From an uncultured Eubacteriales bacterium (GTDB lineage Bacteria; Bacillota; Clostridia; Oscillospirales; CAG-272), in the NCBI GenBank assembly GCA_905210485.1, contig CAJLXA010000002.1:4168-68167 (forward strand): DNA of 64,000 bases, read 5' to 3'. A program made the position numbers and the translations under genes. Positions 3,824 through 61,854 of the stretch are shown here, piece by piece (position 1 is the first letter of the stretch; each line of letters begins with the position of its first letter). The notes under the pieces were generated by a model that saw only the letters and a list, made by a program, of their open reading frames with translations, was not told the DNA's origin and ran no database searches.

Positions 3824-5296
3824 ATGGAGCATAAATCGCTGTGGCAGATGACCGTTAAGGCGCCGGCCTATCCGGTACTTGACGGCGAAATCACCGCCGA
3901 CGTCACCGTTATAGGCGGCGGAATTGCCGGTATACTTACCGCAAAACTTTTGACCGAGGCGGGGTTCTCCGTCGTTGTACTGGAACGTGACCGTATCGGC
4001 GGCGGCGCAACGGGTAACAGCACTGCGAAGATCACATCGCAACACGGCATGAAATACCGCACATTATTAAAAGACCTCGGCGAAGAAGGCGTGAAATTGT
4101 ACGCCTCCGCCGAAGAAGAGGCAATCACCGCCTACCGCGAGATGGTCGAACGGTATCATATCGACTGCGATCTTGTAACGCGCCCCTCCTGCCTTTATAC
4201 CTGCTGTGATCCGGAATCCATTCTGGAAGAATGTCACGCGGCGCGTATCGGCGGCATCGACGCCGTAACGGTCGACGAAACGCCGCTCCCCTTTCCTATA
4301 CGGAAAGCCGTGGTATTCCCCGATCAGGCGGCCTTTCATCCGTTACGGTTTCTGTACGGTATTGCCGATTCTCTCCGCATTTTTGAAAACACGGCGGTCA
4401 CCGACATTGAGGACGGTACGGTCCATACCCGCCGCGGCCGCGTCAAAAGCCGATATACCGTTTTTGCCTGCCACTTCCCCTTTCGTAATTTCCCCGGTCT
4501 TTATTTCACAAAGATGCATCAATCGCGTTCGTATCTTCTGGCACTGAAAGGCGTAAAACCGATTCCCGGGCTGTTTTATTCCGCAGATGCCGACGGATAT
4601 ACATTCCGCGATTACGGAGAACTGCAAATATTCGGCGGCGGCGCACACAGAACGGGCGAACCGTATCCGGGCGGTGCCTACGATATGCTGACGCGCACCG
4701 CAAAGCGGCTCTTCCCCGATGCCAAAATCGCTGCCATGTGGTCGGCGCAGGACAATATCACGGCCGACGGTTTACCCTATATCGGTTATTTTTCGCATCT
4801 CGGCGAACACAGTTTTGTCATCACCGGCTTTGCAAAGTGGGGTTTTTCCACCGCCTATACGGCGGCGCGCCTTATCACCGATAAAATCAGCGGAAAAGAA
4901 AATCCGTGCGACGATCTTTTTTCACCGCGGCGCGCCTCTGCCAAAAGTCTCGGCAACCGTTTGGCCGATGCCGGCGTGTCCATAAAGAATCTGACAAAAG
5001 AAATCGCCTCCTCTCCCAAAAGAACCGAAAGCGACCTTGCCTGCGGCGAGGGCGACGTTGTCCGTTATCATGGACGAAAATGCGGCGTGTATAAAGATGA
5101 AAACGGAAAGCTGTATGCCGTTTCCTCCCGCTGTCCGCACCTCGGTTGCGAACTTGTTTTCAACCCAGACGAAAAGAGTTGGGACTGCCCGTGTCACGGT
5201 TCGCGTTTTTCCTATACGGGGGAGCGCCTGTGCGGCCCTGCGGAAACCGACCTGCCGCTCCTGACGCAGGAAACCGAAGCCGGTAACCCTTTATAA
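3824..5296 (+). CDS. FAD-dependent oxidoreductase with C-terminal Rieske 2Fe-2S domain (YhfW-like)
   Basis: N-terminal dinucleotide fold VTVIGGGIAGIL. C-terminal Rieske motifs CPHLGC and CPCHGS. Confidence 0.8.
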   Translation: MEHKSLWQMTVKAPAYPVLDGEITADVTVIGGGIAGILTAKLLTEAGFSVVVLERDRIGGGATGNSTAKITSQHGMKYRTLLKDLGEEGVKLYASAEEEAITAYREMVERYHIDCDLVTRPSCLYTCCDPESILEECHAARIGGIDAVTVDETPLPFPIRKAVVFPDQAAFHPLRFLYGIADSLRIFENTAVTDIEDGTVHTRRGRVKSRYTVFACHFPFRNFPGLYFTKMHQSRSYLLALKGVKPIPGLFYSADADGYTFRDYGELQIFGGGAHRTGEPYPGGAYDMLTRTAKRLFPDAKIAAMWSAQDNITADGLPYIGYFSHLGEHSFVITGFAKWGFSTAYTAARLITDKISGKENPCDDLFSPRRASAKSLGNRLADAGVSIKNLTKEIASSPKRTESDLACGEGDVVRYHGRKCGVYKDENGKLYAVSSRCPHLGCELVFNPDEKSWDCPCHGSRFSYTGERLCGPAETDLPLLTQETEAGNPL

Positions 5297-26316: not shown

Positions 26317-26572
26317 GTTTTTTGCCTCCTGTTATATTTTTGCTCTTTCAAGGGGGCGGTTTTGGTTTCACACGCTGTCGCGCGTTTCTTTCCGTGTCAT
26401 CTAAAAACCCGAATCCCTGTCCCTCGCGGGAACCGAATTCAGGTACAGACTTCGGCGTGTGTCTTTTGCTTATCGGCAAAAGAGGAAACCGTCGCTTCGC
26501 CCATTTTCGGACATGCTCCACGAAAATTCCCCGCATATCTGCGGCAACCTCTCGCTTCTTCGCACATCAAGC
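26317..26572 (-). promoter_or_regulatory. ~256-nt GC-rich, hairpin-rich 5' leader of the S10-spc-alpha cluster
   Basis: Lies between the predicted TSS (~26572) and the rpsJ ATG. Local hairpins include CCGCA-GATA-TGCGG and CTTTTGC-CGATAA-GCAAAAG. A long-range complement pairs CACACGC (26369-26375) with GCGTGTG (26455-26461). Confidence 0.5.
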
Positions 26573-32926: not shown

Positions 32927-34045
32927 TTATTTACGGTCGCGTTCATCAAGCGCCGCCAGTCCGAGGCGAAATGCCTCCGCAACAATGCGGCGGTCTTCCG
33001 GGTCCTTGCTGTGGAAAGCACCCGACAATGTACGATAAAGTTCTCCGCGCACGCTCATATCACGCGCAAGATATTCCGCGCCTTTCAGCGGCAAAGTGTC
33101 GTCCATGATCGAAAGTCCGTAAAGACCGAAGGTTTCGCCGATGTCCGGCAAAAGAAATTCGGGCGGCAAAATCCCCTCCAGTTTCAGGCGCAGAAACGTT
33201 TCCTCGCCGTAACCGCTTTTGGCAATATAGGACTTTATGGCGGCAAACAGCGTATCGGAATCCCCGACATCGGTAAGCGTTACCGTTTCGTCAAGATAAC
33301 GCCGCGCGGAATAGGCATGAAACACAAGCGACGGTTCTTCGTTTGCCGGTACGTCAACGGTCACCGCTCCTCCGAAACCGGGCATATCGAAACTGCGCCC
33401 CTCCATGGCGCCGGGAGTAAAGATCAGCGGTTTGTTTTCGTACACCGTCATACCGACGGACGCGCTGTTTCCCGTCACGCAAATATTCGCGCCGAAGCGG
33501 CGTATCACGGCCGCCGTTTCTTCGGTATACGGCGCGGCGCAAAGAAGAACATGCGTTTTCCCGTCGTCTGCGGCGCGCATATCTCCGAAACGTTCATCAA
33601 GCGGCGGCGCGTCCGTTTTGTCACAGAATCCGTAAAACGTCACATCGGGGAAATCGAACCGCGTCGGCGCCGCTTCGCTGAAAACATACATATTCTGCGG
33701 CAGGCGCGCCGAGGCGTAAAACACGGGAAAAAGCGAAGCCTCTCCCTTGCCGGGCGCAATAATAAAATGAAGCGACGTATGTTCTTCGGCTTTTGCGATG
33801 ACAAAGGAAAGCGTGTCTCCCGTCAGAAAATCCGCGTCAAACAGATCGCCGGCAATCAGAATATACGACACACCGCTGTCCTCCGCGTCGGAAAGCATAC
33901 GCGAAAAAGAAGCGCGCGCCGCGGTGCGCCGCGCCCGCATAGATTCCGCCGTGAGACCGGCAAAAGGCGCGTCAAACCGCACGCCGCCGCATACCGTGAA
34001 TCTGACGCCGGTATCTACGGTCTCCGTTGTATTTTCATGATCCAT
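32927..34045 (-). CDS. calcineurin-like metallophosphoesterase-fold protein (YhaO/SbcD-like) with degenerate metal motifs
   Basis: YILIAGDLFD matches motif II. Start MDHENTT follows GGAAAGGAG. The ORF-track start at 34105 overlaps a terminator hairpin and is rejected. Confidence 0.6.
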   Translation of the reverse strand: MDHENTTETVDTGVRFTVCGGVRFDAPFAGLTAESMRARRTAARASFSRMLSDAEDSGVSYILIAGDLFDADFLTGDTLSFVIAKAEEHTSLHFIIAPGKGEASLFPVFYASARLPQNMYVFSEAAPTRFDFPDVTFYGFCDKTDAPPLDERFGDMRAADDGKTHVLLCAAPYTEETAAVIRRFGANICVTGNSASVGMTVYENKPLIFTPGAMEGRSFDMPGFGGAVTVDVPANEEPSLVFHAYSARRYLDETVTLTDVGDSDTLFAAIKSYIAKSGYGEETFLRLKLEGILPPEFLLPDIGETFGLYGLSIMDDTLPLKGAEYLARDMSVRGELYRTLSGAFHSKDPEDRRIVAEAFRLGLAALDERDRK

Positions 34046-34061: not shown

Positions 34062-34101
34062 AAAAAGCAGAAGAACGGTTTTGGAAAGTACCGTTCTGCT
34101 G
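34062..34101 (-). terminator. intrinsic terminator inside the 5' leader, 17 nt upstream of the start codon (attenuator candidate)
   Basis: On the minus strand: CAGCAGAACGG-(12-nt loop)-CCGTTCTTCTG, 10/11 bp, followed by CTTTTT, then the RBS GGAAAGGAG. Confidence 0.65.
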
Positions 34102-34174
34102 TCATAATACTGTAGTAAAATCTGTTGATAAACTTGTATTACCCGACAAGCGAAAATACTTGCTTGCAAGGGTA

Positions 34175-34304
34175 TTTTTGCGCCGGACATCAGGGAAAGC
34201 GGGCGGCGTTAAAGCGCCGCATGAGACGCGCATCGCGTGGCTCTGATTGCGCTTCCGCGCAATCTTTCCGCTTGTATTATACCATTTTCGATAAAAGGTT
34301 TCAA
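34175..34304 (-). repeat. conserved promoter plus three-hairpin leader element, copy 1
   Basis: On the minus strand: TTGAAA (34299-34304), 17 nt, TGgTATAAT (-10 at 34276-34281), then ACAAGCG. Hairpins: ATTGCGC-GGAA-GCGCAAT (34246-34263), ACGCG-ATG-CGCGT (34226-34238), GCGGCG-CTTTAA-CGCCGC (34203-34220). Tail: CGCTTTCCCTGATGTC-CGG-CGCAAAAA. A second copy lies at 61556-61684. Confidence 0.6.
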
Positions 34305-34355: not shown

Positions 34356-34384
34356 TTGAAAAGTGCAAATATACATGGTAAAAT
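34356..34384 (+). promoter_or_regulatory. sigma-A type promoter of the MTase-like gene
   Basis: TTGAAA (34356-34361), 17 nt, TAAAAT (34379-34384). Confidence 0.55.
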
Positions 34385-34471
34385 AGTGGCAGACATTGAT
34401 TTTAATATACGGGATTCCGTCGGGCACTGAGACGGTTTTTCGATAGCAATACGGTCACGGAGGACATTTTC

Positions 34472-38862: not shown

Positions 38863-39441
38863 TTATGCCTTTTCTGGAACCTTTTCAGCCTCATCATCCG
38901 GCATAGGCTCCGGCGCTTCCTCGTCCTCAAGCGGTTCCCACGATCTTCCGAATTCGGCATTGCGGAAAAGCGAGGCCAGTCCCGTCAATTGTTTCAGACG
39001 CAGAATTTCGTCTTCGTCCATGCCGAGGTGCCGGGAAATCCACGCGTCGGAACGGCCGAGTTCGTGAAGTTCTTTCACGATATTGCTCATCAGATCAACG
39101 TCGTGCGTACCGCGGGCGCGGTTATGGCGGATCGTACTGGCCATACGCTGGTCGAGAGGTTTGTCGATGACGGAAACCGGCAGCATACCGTTTTCACGGC
39201 AATAGATGTCCACATAGTCTTTCATAATTCTGTAGCGGTGAAATCCGTCGACAATGATATAGGTATCGTTTTCCTCATCGTAGTAACACACGATCGGCAT
39301 GGTATAGCCGTCCTCTTTTATGCTGTCGTAAAGAAGGCGCATTTCGGGCGGTGCCACGCTGTTGGGGTTATACGTATTCGGCGATATTTTTTCAAACGGC
39401 ACGGCAATGACATTATACACCGGGCTTTTATAGCTGCTCAT
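38863..39441 (-). CDS. ParB/Srx-fold protein, IbrB-like
   Basis: IVDGFHR and TIRHNRARG motifs. Acidic C-terminal tail. Its start overlaps the upstream gene by 4 nt. Confidence 0.75.
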   Translation of the reverse strand: MSSYKSPVYNVIAVPFEKISPNTYNPNSVAPPEMRLLYDSIKEDGYTMPIVCYYDEENDTYIIVDGFHRYRIMKDYVDIYCRENGMLPVSVIDKPLDQRMASTIRHNRARGTHDVDLMSNIVKELHELGRSDAWISRHLGMDEDEILRLKQLTGLASLFRNAEFGRSWEPLEDEEAPEPMPDDEAEKVPEKA

Positions 39442-40763
39442 TTTTCGTCTTCCTCTATTGCTTCGTATTTTTCTTTCAGGATCTTCACGCGCAACTGCTG
39501 TTCACGCGTCAATGAAAAACCCATCGTGCGGCATATATGATCGTTTTTCAGAATACACGCGCACATGCGCTTCCAACTCGGTATATCCTTTGTCGATTTG
39601 ATGTCGTCGGTATCATCGGGGATCCTGCCGACAAAAACGACCCGCGGATTTTTCATGACCGTATAATTGGAAACGCCGTTCAGACGGATGTCATACCCGC
39701 GCGCAACCAATTCGTTTACCACATCGGTGGGCAGGCCGCCGCCCGTGCGATGCCAGAAGTCGATCGACGTGCGGAACTTTCTTATATAATTGTTGCGCAG
39801 TTTTGCCGGCAAGGTCTCCAAAAGAAACAGCGTATACTCTTTCCATGTATAATTCTTGGGAAGCGTTACCTTACGATAGCCGAGCGCCTTGGTTTTCCCG
39901 TAAAGAGCGGCGGAATTGACTCCGCGTACCCGCCCCACAAGCTTCACCCATATTTCCGGGTCGATGATACGGTAAAGATTCAGGCTTTCTTTTGCATAGT
40001 CGTTGAACGGCGAAGCAACGCGCATCTGGTCGGGGCGAACCCCCGCCATGTAATACAGATCGTACAGGTGGTTATACTCGTACCCGAAAATAGCGTTGGC
40101 ATGCCAGACATCGGAAGTCGACCAATCGTAAAGAGGTGATGCCGCCCATACGTCCTTATGCCGCTGAATAATCCACGACTGCCCCTTATACCCGTATTTG
40201 GCATTGATAATAGCGCTGTACCGGTGAAGCGATTCGTCGCAACGGATGCCCAGAAGGCATATCGTTTTTTTGTTTTCATGCGTCATGCGGTAAAACCGCC
40301 CGAACTGATTGGCAAGGTCCTCCTGATGCATGCGATAACGGTAAGTGACAAAGGGATTGTTCTTCAGATTGATGACATAGGGATGATCCGGCATCGGACG
40401 CACCCAATCCGCTTCCTTTTTGTCGTCCCACGGATACCAGAACATTTCGTAGTTGCTGATCGAAGTGCGCGTGGCCATCGGCAGGCATACCCAATACAGT
40501 TCCGCTTCTTTTTCAATGCGGTTAAAAGTATTCTCCACATATTTTGTCGTTTCGCTGTACTGCGCCTCAAAATCCTGATGGAACACCCCTACCGTTCTTC
40601 CGGGATAAAACTTATTCCGGAAATCCAACGTAAGATTCAGAAGAAGTCCGCTGTCTTTGCCACCGGAAAACGAGACATATATATTGTCAAACTCACGAAA
40701 AATATAGTGCATACGTGAGCAAAACGCCTCGTAGACATTCTGATGCTGATACTGTTTTTTCAT
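39438..40763 (-). CDS. PAPS-reductase-fold PP-loop ATP pyrophosphatase with long C-terminal domain, IbrA-like (DUF3440 type)
   Basis: PP-loop SFSGGKDSGLLL near the N-terminus. 441 aa. Paired with the ParB-like gene. Confidence 0.75.
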   Translation of the reverse strand: MKKQYQHQNVYEAFCSRMHYIFREFDNIYVSFSGGKDSGLLLNLTLDFRNKFYPGRTVGVFHQDFEAQYSETTKYVENTFNRIEKEAELYWVCLPMATRTSISNYEMFWYPWDDKKEADWVRPMPDHPYVINLKNNPFVTYRYRMHQEDLANQFGRFYRMTHENKKTICLLGIRCDESLHRYSAIINAKYGYKGQSWIIQRHKDVWAASPLYDWSTSDVWHANAIFGYEYNHLYDLYYMAGVRPDQMRVASPFNDYAKESLNLYRIIDPEIWVKLVGRVRGVNSAALYGKTKALGYRKVTLPKNYTWKEYTLFLLETLPAKLRNNYIRKFRTSIDFWHRTGGGLPTDVVNELVARGYDIRLNGVSNYTVMKNPRVVFVGRIPDDTDDIKSTKDIPSWKRMCACILKNDHICRTMGFSLTREQQLRVKILKEKYEAIEEDEK

Positions 40764-59727: not shown

Positions 59728-60273
59728 TTATTTAAAATATCTGTCAAGAAGTCCCTGGAACGCTCTGCCGTGACGGGCCTCGTCCTTCGCCATCTCATGA
59801 ACCGTATCGTGAATGGCGTCAAGGTTATGCTGTTTTGCCAGTTTTGCAAGATCGAACTTGCCGGCACAAGCGCCGTTTTCGGCGGCCACACGCATCTCCA
59901 GATTCTTCTTGGTCGAAGCCGAAACCGACTCTCCCAGCATTTCCGCAAATTTAGCGGCATGTTCCGCTTCTTCGTAAGCGGCCTTTTCCCAATACATACC
60001 GATTTCGGGATATCCCTCGCGGAAAGCGACGCGCGCCATCGCAAGATACATACCGACTTCGGAACATTCACCGTTGAAATTTGCGTGGAGTCCTTCCAGA
60101 ACTTCGGCGGGAATATCCTTCACGATACCCACTTCATGCTCGGTTGCATAAGACATGGTCTCTTCGGTTACCTCCACAAATTTTTCGCCGGGTGCCTTGC
60201 AAAGAGGGCAGATGTCAGGGCGAACATCGCTGACAACGATTTCGCCGCATACGGTACATTTCCATTTTTTCAT
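59728..60273 (-). CDS. rbr: reverse rubrerythrin (N-terminal rubredoxin-like domain, C-terminal diiron four-helix bundle)
   Basis: N-terminal CTVCG...CPLC. Ferritin-like ExxH motifs ([18 protein letters not shown]). Confidence 0.9.
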
Positions 60274-60304
60274 AAGTAGTTTCTCCTTTAATAAATCTTT
60301 ATTT

Positions 60305-60320
60305 GTAAACTATTGTTTAC
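60305..60320. promoter_or_regulatory. 16-bp perfect palindrome between crp-family gene and rubrerythrin gene
   Basis: GTAAAC-TATT-GTTTAC overlapping the crp-family stop codon, about 40 nt upstream of the rbr ATG. Confidence 0.4.
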
Positions 60321-60975
60321 TTTCTATTTGTTTTAATGCACTTTCCGACAAAATTTCCACTGTCCCGTGCGATACACGGATCGCACCGAGTTCCCGGAAT
60401 TTACGCAATATACGCGTAACCACCTCTCGCGCGGATCCGATATAGCGGGCGATCTGTTCATGCGTTAGGTGCAGTTCCCTGCTTTTTGTTTCTTCCGCTT
60501 CCCGAAGCAGAACGTCTGCGATGCGGCTGTCCACACTGCGGAACAAAATATCCTGCATATGCGAGGTAATCGCCGAAAACGTTTCGGATGTCATGCGCAG
60601 AATCTCACATTCGGCCGTACGGTTTTCACGCAATATGCGCGCCATTACCTGCGGCGGAACAATGTCCAACACCGTATCTGTCTCGGCGGAAAAGTACACG
60701 TCCGCGGTCACATGACGTAATATACAAACCGATGACAGCACGCAGGTCATACCGGCGGTGAGGAAGAAAATCGTCGCTTCCCGTCCCTCTTCGGACAAAA
60801 TGGAAACGCCCACTTTGCCGCCCGTCACACGCATCATGCCAAGGCACGGGTCTCCGTGAGAATGAATGAGCGTGCCGCGTTTATAAGATACGGTATACGC
60901 GCTTTCGGAAATATGTCGTTTTTCTTCTTCGGTCAGCGCCTTATAAAACGGAATATCTGTCAGCATCGTTGTCAT
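60310..60975 (-). CDS. Crp/Fnr-family transcriptional regulator
   Basis: cNMP-binding-like N-terminal domain and C-terminal HTH ARYIGSAREVVTRILRKF, with a CRP-like R-E-x-x-x-R recognition helix. Confidence 0.85.
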   Translation of the reverse strand: MTTMLTDIPFYKALTEEEKRHISESAYTVSYKRGTLIHSHGDPCLGMMRVTGGKVGVSILSEEGREATIFFLTAGMTCVLSSVCILRHVTADVYFSAETDTVLDIVPPQVMARILRENRTAECEILRMTSETFSAITSHMQDILFRSVDSRIADVLLREAEETKSRELHLTHEQIARYIGSAREVVTRILRKFRELGAIRVSHGTVEILSESALKQIESKQ

Positions 60976-60988
60976 TCCTTAGCGAATA

Positions 60989-61303
60989 TCACTGAAGAAT
61001 AAAATCGCGCAATGCTTCCTCGTCAAGGTATCCCACCGAACGGGCCGCCGTCTCGCCGTTTTTCAGAAGAACCAGCGTCGGTATGGAACTTACGCCGTAT
61101 CTGGCGGCCAGCGATTCTTCATCATCAACATTTACACGGCAAAAGAGCACCTGATCCGCATATTCTTCTTCCGCCTCTTCAATAAGCGGCGCAAGCATAC
61201 GGCAAGGGCCGCACCAATCGGCATAGAAGTCGATCAGTACCGGCTTCCCGGATTCCTTTACCGTCGTATCGAAATTGTCACTTGTAAGCGTCAGAACAGC
61301 CAT
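60989..61303 (-). CDS. trxA: thioredoxin
   Basis: 104 aa with a WCGPC active site. Confidence 0.95.
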   Translation of the reverse strand: MAVLTLTSDNFDTTVKESGKPVLIDFYADWCGPCRMLAPLIEEAEEEYADQVLFCRVNVDDEESLAARYGVSSIPTLVLLKNGETAARSVGYLDEEALRDFILQ

Positions 61304-61555
61304 ATAAACCTCTCATTCCGAAAGGAATCGCAGCCGAACCCGGCATTAGGTCATTCCTTTCATTTTATTATATAAGCGGGAAAATTTGCTCGCATTGGTT
61401 TTCCATCATCATGTTTCAACGGAAACGGCGGTTTGTGTTACATAAAGCGCAGGGTAACGGCCGTTGCCGACAAAATTTCCGATCCGGTATCGTCTCTGCG
61501 ATATTATATCGTAGGACATTGCCGCCTGTGTCCGATGAATCATAATCTGTAACCG

Positions 61556-61684
61556 TTTTTGCGATAGACATCAAGGAAAGCGGCGACGGTGTGCCGTCGC
61601 TTTGGCGCATGCATGTGCGCCTTGGGATTGCGCACCGCGCAATACCTACGCTTGTATTATACATCATTTCCATGAAATATACAA
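61556..61684 (-). repeat. conserved promoter plus three-hairpin leader element, copy 2
   Basis: On the minus strand: TTGTAT (61679-61684), 17 nt, TATAAT (61656-61661), then ACAAGCG. Hairpins: ATTGCGC-GGT-GCGCAAT (61627-61643), GGCGCA-CATGCA-TGCGCC (61604-61621), GCGACGG-CACA-CCGTCGC (61583-61600). Tail: CGCTTTCCTTGATGTC-TAT-CGCAAAAA. Confidence 0.6.
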
Positions 61685-61783: not shown

Positions 61784-61826
61784 CTGTGACAATATCACAG
61801 AATGAAAAAGTTTTTTTGTCTATAAT
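61784..61826 (+). promoter_or_regulatory. CRP-type palindrome about 41 bp upstream of the predicted TSS, plus the -10 box of the flavodiiron gene
   Basis: CTGTGACAATATCACAG (61784-61800, 7 of 8 symmetric pairs, TGTGA/TCACA half-sites) and TATAAT at 61821-61826. Confidence 0.55.
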
Positions 61827-61854
61827 GTAATCAACAAAACCACAAAAGGATTCG

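Follow-up and report, generated by a model that had tools for sequence, protein, structure and literature searches.

Two operons in the window analyzed here, 64,000 nt of contig CAJLXA010000002.1 from an uncultured Eubacteriales bacterium (GCA_905210485.1), start with the same promoter-proximal block of three hairpins, which raises the question of whether this block is a regulatory leader that couples both operons. One copy (copy 2) precedes the trxA-crp-rubrerythrin operon and the other (copy 1) an operon encoding a 372-aa SbcD-like protein and a Big_3 lipoprotein. The first-pass annotation had proposed a conserved leader that defines a small redox/envelope regulon, which was not borne out: the element is a tandem repeat of variable number that is absent from the orthologous copy-1 locus of two sister species and has neither an Rfam match nor a true match in any collection scanned. 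With confidence and doubt about evenly balanced, we read it as a lineage-specific, hairpin-rich structured tandem repeat that lies where transcription from two sigma-70-type promoters is predicted to begin and becomes part of the 5' untranslated regions (UTRs), where any effect is likely passive; it is probably not a conserved regulatory switch. The sequence family is new, and its kind is already known, namely lineage-specific hairpin-rich intergenic repeats of variable number. This reading starts from what can be observed directly: the element is a repeat, assemblies differ in the number of its copies, two sister species lack it at the copy-1 locus, the 9-mer TAATACAAG brackets it at copy 1, and it is conserved block by block with its hairpins kept.

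All features of the trxA leader and of copy 1 are read on the - strand unless the + strand is stated, and coordinates refer to the 64-kb window. The promoter and hairpin motifs that had been claimed for copy 2 are each present at their coordinates. The distal trxA promoter consists of the -35-like hexamer TTGTAT (61684-61679, 3/6 match to TTGACA) and, after a 17-nt spacer, the -10 hexamer TATAAT (61661-61656), directly followed by ACAAGCG (61655-61649). The repeated 9-mer TAATACAAG (61659-61651) includes the last four bases of this -10 box, and GTATAATACAAGCG is common to copy 1. Then come the hairpins P2 (ATTGCGC-GGT-GCGCAAT, 61643-61627), P3 (GGCGCA-CATGCA-TGCGCC, 61621-61604) and P4 (GCGACGG-CACA-CCGTCGC, 61600-61583) and the tail CGCTTTCCTTGATGTCTATCGCAAAAA, which ends at 61556. 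The P1 arms AAGCG and CGCTT (61653-61649 and 61582-61578) can close the three hairpins to form a four-way junction, and the 3' part is made up of the CU-rich tail plus CGCAAAAA (61577-61556). The boundaries given by the first-pass annotation, with the end at 61556, could be confirmed, but what it described is not a whole element: copy 2 (61556..61655; covariance model 119 bits, E=3e-27) corresponds to positions 1-100 of a repeat unit that in its full length of 137 nt also has an A/U-rich hairpin and a junction.

The full unit of 137-138 nt comprises a short closing helix, the three hairpins, the conserved CU-rich strand, the A/U-rich hairpin P5 (GCAAAAAU...AUUUUUGC, with TGCAAGCA in its conserved loop) and the junction GTCGGGTAATACAAG, after which the next unit starts. 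The last unit of every trxA array stops after CGCAAAAA, exactly where the originally described element ends. At copy 1, one complete unit of 138 nt (P1-P4, tail, P5 and junction; 34275-34138) follows the promoter TTGAAA-17-TGgTATAAT (34276..34304, 11/12 with an extended -10), and TAATACAAG brackets it at 34279-34271 and 34141-34133 (element span 34133..34275). A covariance-model search had been suggested as a check: a model built from the trxA-locus units alone finds copy 1 with 78.5 bits (E=2e-17), and alignment and model agree on an architecture that is shared from the -10 box to the tail. Exact shared 13-mer and 16-mer blocks occur within the window at these two loci only.

To follow the element within the species, contigs encoding an identical TrxA were compared, which yielded ten same-species loci from human-gut metagenome assemblies and the NCBI metagenome-assembled genome GCA_964327885.1. 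The trxA intergenic length varies among these assemblies in steps of 137 nt. Three head-to-tail units, 137 nt apart, are present in L001, two in L002, L006, L009 and L010, and one in the window as well as in L003, L004, L005 and L008; in L007 the array is interrupted by a scaffold gap. Full, untruncated units are seen in L001, L002 and L006, and at the copy-1 locus another strain (L011) carries at least 2 units. Units inside one array differ by a few single-nucleotide polymorphisms, therefore at least some of the arrays must exist as such and cannot be explained as duplications made in assembly. Since repeats of this kind can be collapsed in short-read assemblies, the window may in reality have more than its one unit.

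The comparison with sister species dates the insertion at copy 1 to this lineage. Homologues of the 372-aa gene with 46% and 40% identity are found in two sister species with synteny kept (gene order: SecG, ~500-aa gene, divergent intergenic region, SbcD-like gene, large lipoprotein). Their intergenic regions of about 225 nt contain the orthologous promoter (TATAATACAA; TTGCAC-17-TGCTATAATACAAC in L057) and lack the unit, so the sisters drive this second operon without it. The orthology of the copy-1 upstream region to those of the sisters is well supported (scores 74 and 55, 0/300 shuffles as good), and since the promoter is there without the unit, 137-138 nt must have been added right after TATAATACAAG in this species; the added DNA ends in the second TAATACAAG. 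The unit is also absent at a related flavodiiron/crp locus. The next-best homologue of the Crp regulator is only 41% identical, which indicates that the lineage is poorly sampled, and the contigs of its inspected relatives are not syntenic. About 85 kb of the genome (window plus flanks) contain two unit-bearing loci only. Judged from these sequences, the element is young and narrow in distribution and has been found so far in one human-gut Clostridia species.

Database searches gave the same picture. A whole-window Rfam scan at the gathering threshold matches only the S10-Clostridia ribosomal protein leader RF03136 (43 bits, 26497-26569, -), which lies ahead of the S10-spc ribosomal protein cluster, and leaves both copies unmatched; in permissive scans of both loci the best match reached E=0.47, and all were far below gathering scores. 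The S10 leader assigns the organism to the Clostridia. The proposed Rfam check thus assigned neither copy to a known family. As the fold resembles a cloverleaf, tRNA and tmRNA were considered as well, and none was found. The tail pattern had 32 matches in 185,579 species-representative GTDB genomes, two of which were inspected and lie in coding sequence, and none exceeded 14 bits with the model. The 5' pattern had 9 matches in JGI metagenomes, all coding or chance, and two patterns gave 106 chance matches in IMG/VR. Across all pattern-scan matches none exceeded 18 bits with the covariance model, and those inspected lie in coding sequence. A blastn search of phage and plasmid collections found nothing. 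Searching the spurious unit-spanning peptide with phmmer against 1.84 billion proteins returned only the ORFs (open reading frames) of this locus and two unrelated repeat proteins. The latter, P0378 (919 aa) and P0380 (1447 aa), consist entirely of ~56-90-aa tandem repeats that match the peptide weakly (30% identity, 7 and 16 stretches) and are probably translated tandem DNA repeats of other organisms without relation to the unit.

Both copies adopt the same predicted fold, an AAGCG/CGCUU helix that closes three hairpins and is followed by the single-stranded CU-rich tail, with z-scores against shuffled sequences of -2.65 and -2.75 for single units and -5.4 for the three-unit array. Homology of the two loci begins at GTATAATACAAG, the left flank common to both; upstream of the -10 box, the trxA and copy-1 promoter regions are not significantly alike (32/300 shuffles as good), therefore the promoters are not shared as a whole. 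Within the unit, conservation is strikingly uneven. Identity between the loci is 100% in the lead and P1 5' arm, 89% in P2, 85% in the P1 3' arm and tail, 70-90% in P5, 94% in the 3' junction and 20% in the J1/2 linker, and 31 of 44 ungapped positions differ in the P3-P4 segment, where two strong hairpins are kept at both loci. When one copy was diverged to the observed distance in an unconstrained simulation, it folded as well as the real partner in 149/5000 and 20/5000 cases. Read by eye, both partners of a pair differ between the loci once in P4 (A-U to G-C) and once in P5 (U-A to C-G). Such a pattern would fit selection that acts on particular blocks and on the ability to form hairpins, an argument that rests on two lineages only and that palindrome-preserving mutation or a mosaic origin could mimic; given the block-wise conservation, some function shared by both loci is possible.

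How could such a repeat act? Sigma-70-type spacing (-35/-10 at 16-18 nt) is found at both loci, strong at copy 1 and with a perfect -10 but a -35 of 3/6 at copy 2; the promoter scan did not flag the distal trxA promoter. Based on promoter geometry, the sense start is probably the G seven nt after TATAAT, at 61649 (trxA) and 34269 (copy 1), so that the P1 5' arm would be largely missing from the RNA of the first unit. As the sense promoter of copy 1 comes close to the consensus and is kept in the sister species, transcription should run through the units on the - strand. Located directly after the -10 box, the unit would form the start of the 5' UTR of both the trxA-crp-rubrerythrin and the 372-aa/Big_3 operons, and in the sense RNA beginning at this G, about 3-5 nt would separate the 5' end from stable GC-rich hairpins, the first being the extended P2 stem. 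In Firmicutes, 5'-proximal GC hairpins protect mRNAs from 5'-end-dependent decay. The conserved CU-rich strand CUUUCCYUGAUGUC would stay exposed, and Shine-Dalgarno-like sequences of the GGAAAG type that are complementary to it are found close to the ribosome-binding site (RBS) at each locus: CUUUCC could pair with GGAAAG at the copy-1 RBS (34060-34052) and with AAGGAA in the Shine-Dalgarno-like arm at 61361-61353. By analogy with known repeats, the likeliest effect would be a passive tuning of mRNA stability or translation with a dose set by copy number, and a switch that senses a ligand or signal seems less likely.

The closest described analogue of the unit appears to be the pneumococcal BOX element (boxA-boxB(n)-boxC), in which tandem boxB modules of variable number are co-transcribed, are reported to alter the expression of neighbours up or down and, in large arrays, create spurious ORFs on both strands (PMC3049150). 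Like BOX, the unit is a small, strongly folded intergenic repeat whose tandem number is strain-variable, and the 206-aa ORF of L001 is the same kind of artefact. The number is 1, 2 or 3 at trxA and at least 2 at copy 1, as counted in short-read assemblies, and the secondary structure would be stable if transcribed. The differences are that here the whole 137-nt unit is repeated and not a short internal module, that it occurs at two loci in one species and exactly at the predicted transcription start, and that there is no sequence similarity. A second comparison can be drawn with the bcr repeats of the Bacillus cereus group (bcr1-bcr18), which are lineage-restricted, are often located in 5' or 3' UTRs, in some cases have a conserved secondary structure and have been proposed to act at the RNA level (PMC3446304). 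The unit resembles them as a lineage-restricted Firmicutes repeat in UTRs, but bcr1-3 are high-copy, MITE-like (miniature inverted-repeat transposable element) and dispersed and are not described as variable tandem arrays (PMC3446304), whereas the unit is seen at two loci. With MITEs, repetitive extragenic palindromes (REPs) and bacterial interspersed mosaic elements it shares conserved ends with a variable interior, GC-rich perfect 6-8-bp hairpins like those of REP units and perhaps, at copy 1, the bracketing direct repeat (PMC3184786, PMC10969869, PMC3733652). Unlike these, it is not AT-rich, its terminal inverted repeats are weak, and neither an associated transposase nor a multi-copy distribution was seen in the loci and the ~85 kb covered; a GTAG tag, as many REPs have it, stands ahead of P2 at the trxA locus but not at copy 1. 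Tandem intergenic repeats of tens to ~100 bp with strain-variable number are also found within transcription units of mycobacteria as variable-number tandem repeats of the MIRU (mycobacterial interspersed repetitive unit) type, which form multi-locus families, often contain short in-frame ORFs and are not noted for multi-hairpin folds. The unit is likewise tandem, intergenic, inside a transcription unit and variable in number, but it is multi-hairpin and present at two loci.

Several points weigh against the reading as a passive structured repeat. The CU-rich tail pairs with the RBS regions over 6 bp only, and start site, strand and expression effect are all inferred. The copy numbers were counted in metagenome assemblies made from short reads, where repeats of 137 nt may be collapsed, and the two loci seen are too few to mark an interspersed or mobile family in the manner of BOX elements or MITEs. 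The + strand folds 7-8 kcal/mol more stably in the two paralogues (-58.4 vs -50.6 and -62.0 vs -55.2), because several stem positions are G·U on + and A·C on -; four of the five stem changes read by eye are of this type, which is not significant. Finally, several blocks have remained identical although the two copies are otherwise saturated with changes, which points to a specific function and not just to passive structure.

This last observation is also what speaks for a dedicated cis-regulatory leader RNA, in which one common protein, small RNA (sRNA) or ligand would control a small regulon and additional units would multiply the binding sites. The blocks TATAATACAAGCG, the P2 arms, CCGCTTTCCYTGATGTCC, CGCAAAAATA, TGCAAGCA and GTCGGGTAATACAAG are 85-100% identical, and the saturated sequence between them keeps its hairpins; the copy-1 P2 loop remains a GNRA loop despite a double change from GGAA to GAGA, and the copy-1 leader ends with a terminator-like hairpin before the RBS, as expected for an attenuator layout. 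However, we consider such a leader unlikely. Besides the lack of an Rfam match, the nucleotides of the four-way junction are unconserved (J1/2 20%), unlike a ligand pocket, with conservation located in P1, P2, tail and P5; cross-species conservation with covariation, as known from riboswitch-like leaders, is not seen, since the element is missing from the orthologous operon of both sister species and true matches are missing from all genome, metagenome and viral collections scanned. Moreover, the copy number varies between strains, the P1 5' arm is probably upstream of the start in the first unit, and the two operons have no evident functional link (TrxA, Crp/Fnr regulator and reverse rubrerythrin vs an SbcD-like protein without a Pfam hit and a Big_3 lipoprotein). 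A related idea, to which we give a similarly small chance, is that the unit is a novel type of structured nucleic acid with a function of its own, either a protein-binding or antisense regulatory RNA that is arrayed in variable number and couples oxidative-stress and cell-envelope operons, or a small element that targets the -10/+1 sequence TAATACAAG of promoters. This idea draws on the same perfectly conserved blocks in saturated copies and on the kept hairpins between them.

It is equally improbable, in our view, that the functional molecule is made from the + strand, where a promoter beyond the array would produce either an antisense RNA over the sense promoter and 5' UTR or a long leader of the divergent flavodiiron or 520-aa gene, acting by transcriptional interference or as sRNA. 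The better folding of the + strand in both paralogues fits this proposal, as do the P5 differences read from the folds, all of which pair on + (two A-U to G·U, one U-A to C-G) while two are A·C mismatches on -, and on this strand no unit would lack a part of P1. Promoter-like sites that share TCATAAT(A)CTGTA also lie just upstream of the array on + at both loci: TTGCCG-16-CATAAT at 61519..61546 with a predicted start at ~61553, 3 nt before the unit, and its equivalent at copy 1 (34081-34108). Matches of that quality, however, are expected by chance ~1-1.6 times per region. The strand-informative changes stand at 4 to 1, which is not significant, a polymorphism in unit 1 of L001 gives G·U on -, no clear + strand terminator follows the array, and the strong orthologous sense promoter would have to transcribe the units anyway. 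As far as the sequence can tell, either - or + could be the functional strand. One speculation for a + strand RNA is a CsrA sponge: GGACAUCARGGA occurs on +, but it provides no more than two closely spaced conserved GGA motifs per unit.

Slightly less probable still is a non-autonomous mobile element of the MITE or PATE (palindrome-associated transposable element) type that would use TAATACAAG or its immediate neighbourhood as insertion site, expand into head-to-tail arrays and do nothing for the host, with the conserved ends serving for transposase recognition. At copy 1 a 9-nt direct repeat brackets a body of 128-129 bp, the sister site is empty, and imperfect inverted termini (ACAAGCGgAAA / TTTtCGCTTGT) could form 11 pairs; conserved ends with a variable middle and the same left flank GTATAATACAAG at both loci point in the same direction. 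The bracketing 9-mer TAATACAAG, a candidate target-site duplication, is at the same time simply the phase of the tandem repeat. A mobile element is further disfavoured by the low number of two loci in ~85 kb and none elsewhere in the scans, by a G+C content of 53-57%, which is not the AT-richness of MITEs, and by the trxA locus, where the inverted termini are weak (~5/6 positions pair) and the right end is a truncation and not a clean boundary. There is also no transposase among the genes listed for the fetched loci, which cover ~75% of the window and flanks, with 38-52 kb of the window unannotated.

An action at the DNA level, with the P2 palindrome ATTGCGC-N3/4-GCGCAAT centred ~15 bp after the start as a repressor operator that is multiplied by extra units, is the least probable of these explanations and in our opinion quite doubtful: the P2 arms never vary, neither between the loci nor among the variants, whereas P3 and P4 drift, and repressor operators typically lie just downstream of +1, but the half-site spacer of 3 nt (trxA) vs 4 nt (copy 1) is awkward for a dimeric DNA binder, and neither the retained P3/P4 hairpins nor the conserved tail and P5 would be explained. 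Type III toxin-antitoxin systems, in which ToxI-like repeats of ~34-45 nt precede a small endoribonuclease toxin, resemble copy 1 in the order of promoter, tandem direct repeats, terminator and protein gene, and were rejected because the downstream 372-aa gene is conserved in syntenic form in sisters that lack the repeats and because the second locus precedes trxA. Self-cleaving ribozyme arrays, retrons, CRISPR and integron attC sites were dropped on layout, for lack of an Rfam hit or for a missing partner gene.

Returning to the structured repeat, the long remainder of the trxA leader seems to contain an older trace of it. A 119-nt spacer (61437..61555) has no detectable relation to the unit (180/1000 and 682/1000 shuffles score equally well, i.e., not significant) and contains ACAGATTATGA, which is found also after the copy-1 unit; the motif ACAG(T)ATTATGA comes after the array at both loci. 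The spacer is followed by a decayed partial unit (61362..61436) that lacks the three hairpins and consists of a directly closed P1 with the tail (ACAAAC-CGCC-GTTTCCGTTGA, after which it reads TGCGAGCAAATTTTCCCGCTTATATAATAAAATG), a P5-like segment and the junction CGCTTATATAATAAAATG. Its match to the covariance model is 14.9 bits (E=0.054), and when its P5 and junction are aligned to the copy-1 unit, the score is reached by 3/1000 shuffles (1/300 in another test). The junction of this decayed unit supplies the proximal TATAAT (61372-61367) that had been considered a possible second -10 box; the hexamer is indeed there, accompanied by a weak -35 (ATGCGA, 17 nt). Also present, as had been described, are the 9-bp stem before the trxA RBS, with arms GAAAGGAAT (61361-61353) and ATTCCTTTC (61328-61320), and the alternative ATTCC-TTTC-GGAAT hairpin, both within 61309..61361, where the RBS GAGAGG (61314-61309) is followed by the trxA ATG at 61303.

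The operon downstream (59728..61303) comprises trxA (61303-60989), a gene for a Crp/Fnr-family regulator (60975-60310) and reverse rubrerythrin (60273-59728), with Pfam hits on record, and a flavodiiron-rubredoxin gene is divergent from it. Between the divergent trxA and flavodiiron genes lies the palindrome CTGTGACAATATCACAG (61784-61800), centred ~42 bp upstream of the predicted start of a + strand promoter (TATAAT 61822-61827), and at the related locus L059 (~3867-3883) CTGTAACAAAATTACAG is found at the same place before its flavodiiron gene. The palindrome looks like a box of the neighbouring Crp/Fnr-family regulator in a class II activator position.

In the copy-1 leader, a hairpin followed by UUUUU that resembles an intrinsic terminator (34062..34099) ends 2 nt before the RBS GGAAAGGAG (34060-34052) of the 372-aa gene. 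The terminator scan did not flag it, which is attributed to its 10-nt loop exceeding the limit of 8 used in the scan. Given this hairpin and U-run at the end of the leader, a separate transcript of about 210 nt could be a further product of the copy-1 locus. The loop between the arms GCAGAACGGU...ACCGUUCUUCUGC has CUUUCC, the same motif as the unit tail, and the sister species have a hairpin at this position, but without the U-run. Pfam detects no metallophosphoesterase domain in the SbcD/Mre11-like 372-aa protein (32927-34045, -) or in the two homologues closest to it (P0122, P0123), whereas all more distant homologues carry PF00149; a GDLFD-like motif remains, and the enzyme may be degenerate in this lineage. 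On the + strand, the divergent 520-aa gene (start 34472) has its own promoter-like site (34356-34384, TTGAAA-17-TAAAAT) and, ~20 nt before its RBS, a small hairpin CCGTC-GGGCACTGA-GACGG followed by TTTTT (34426-34449).

The repeats also affect gene prediction. The 85-aa ORF that lies over copy 2 (61416-61673) had been suspected to be spurious, and very probably it is, as the gene callers of other strains place different ORFs there, on the opposite strand. Those calls comprise 58 and 67 aa (L002, L004, L006, L007, L009 and L010) and 206 aa (2290-2910 of L001 on the - strand of that locus, across three units), none of them with a Pfam hit. The trxA-type unit has no stop in any frame on the strand opposite trxA, and the copy-1 unit has stops in the corresponding frames; therefore these ORFs are repeat artefacts, and the 206-aa ORF was rejected as a gene on the same grounds. 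A peptide of 20-51 aa starting at the ATG in the tail was likewise rejected, since 6/7 codon differences between the loci are non-synonymous and a Shine-Dalgarno sequence is missing.

Elsewhere in the window, CotJA, CotJB and Mn-catalase genes at ~7.0-8.3 kb indicate a spore former, and a gene pair at ~39100-40300 (21318-22529 in L170) encodes a ParB_N-domain protein and a PAPS-reductase/DUF3440 protein.

Taken as a young repeat, the element illustrates how the leaders of core stress genes can be lengthened and restructured in a gut species that is not in culture. Its arrays also give rise to spurious ORF calls (58-206 aa), and metagenome assemblies are probably broken or collapsed by them. 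Should a factor bind to the conserved blocks, a new regulatory module would be at hand, but the present evidence points to an ordinary lineage-specific structured repeat. If copy number indeed tunes the expression of thioredoxin and rubrerythrin, the array would be a means by which oxygen tolerance is adjusted from strain to strain in this gut anaerobe.

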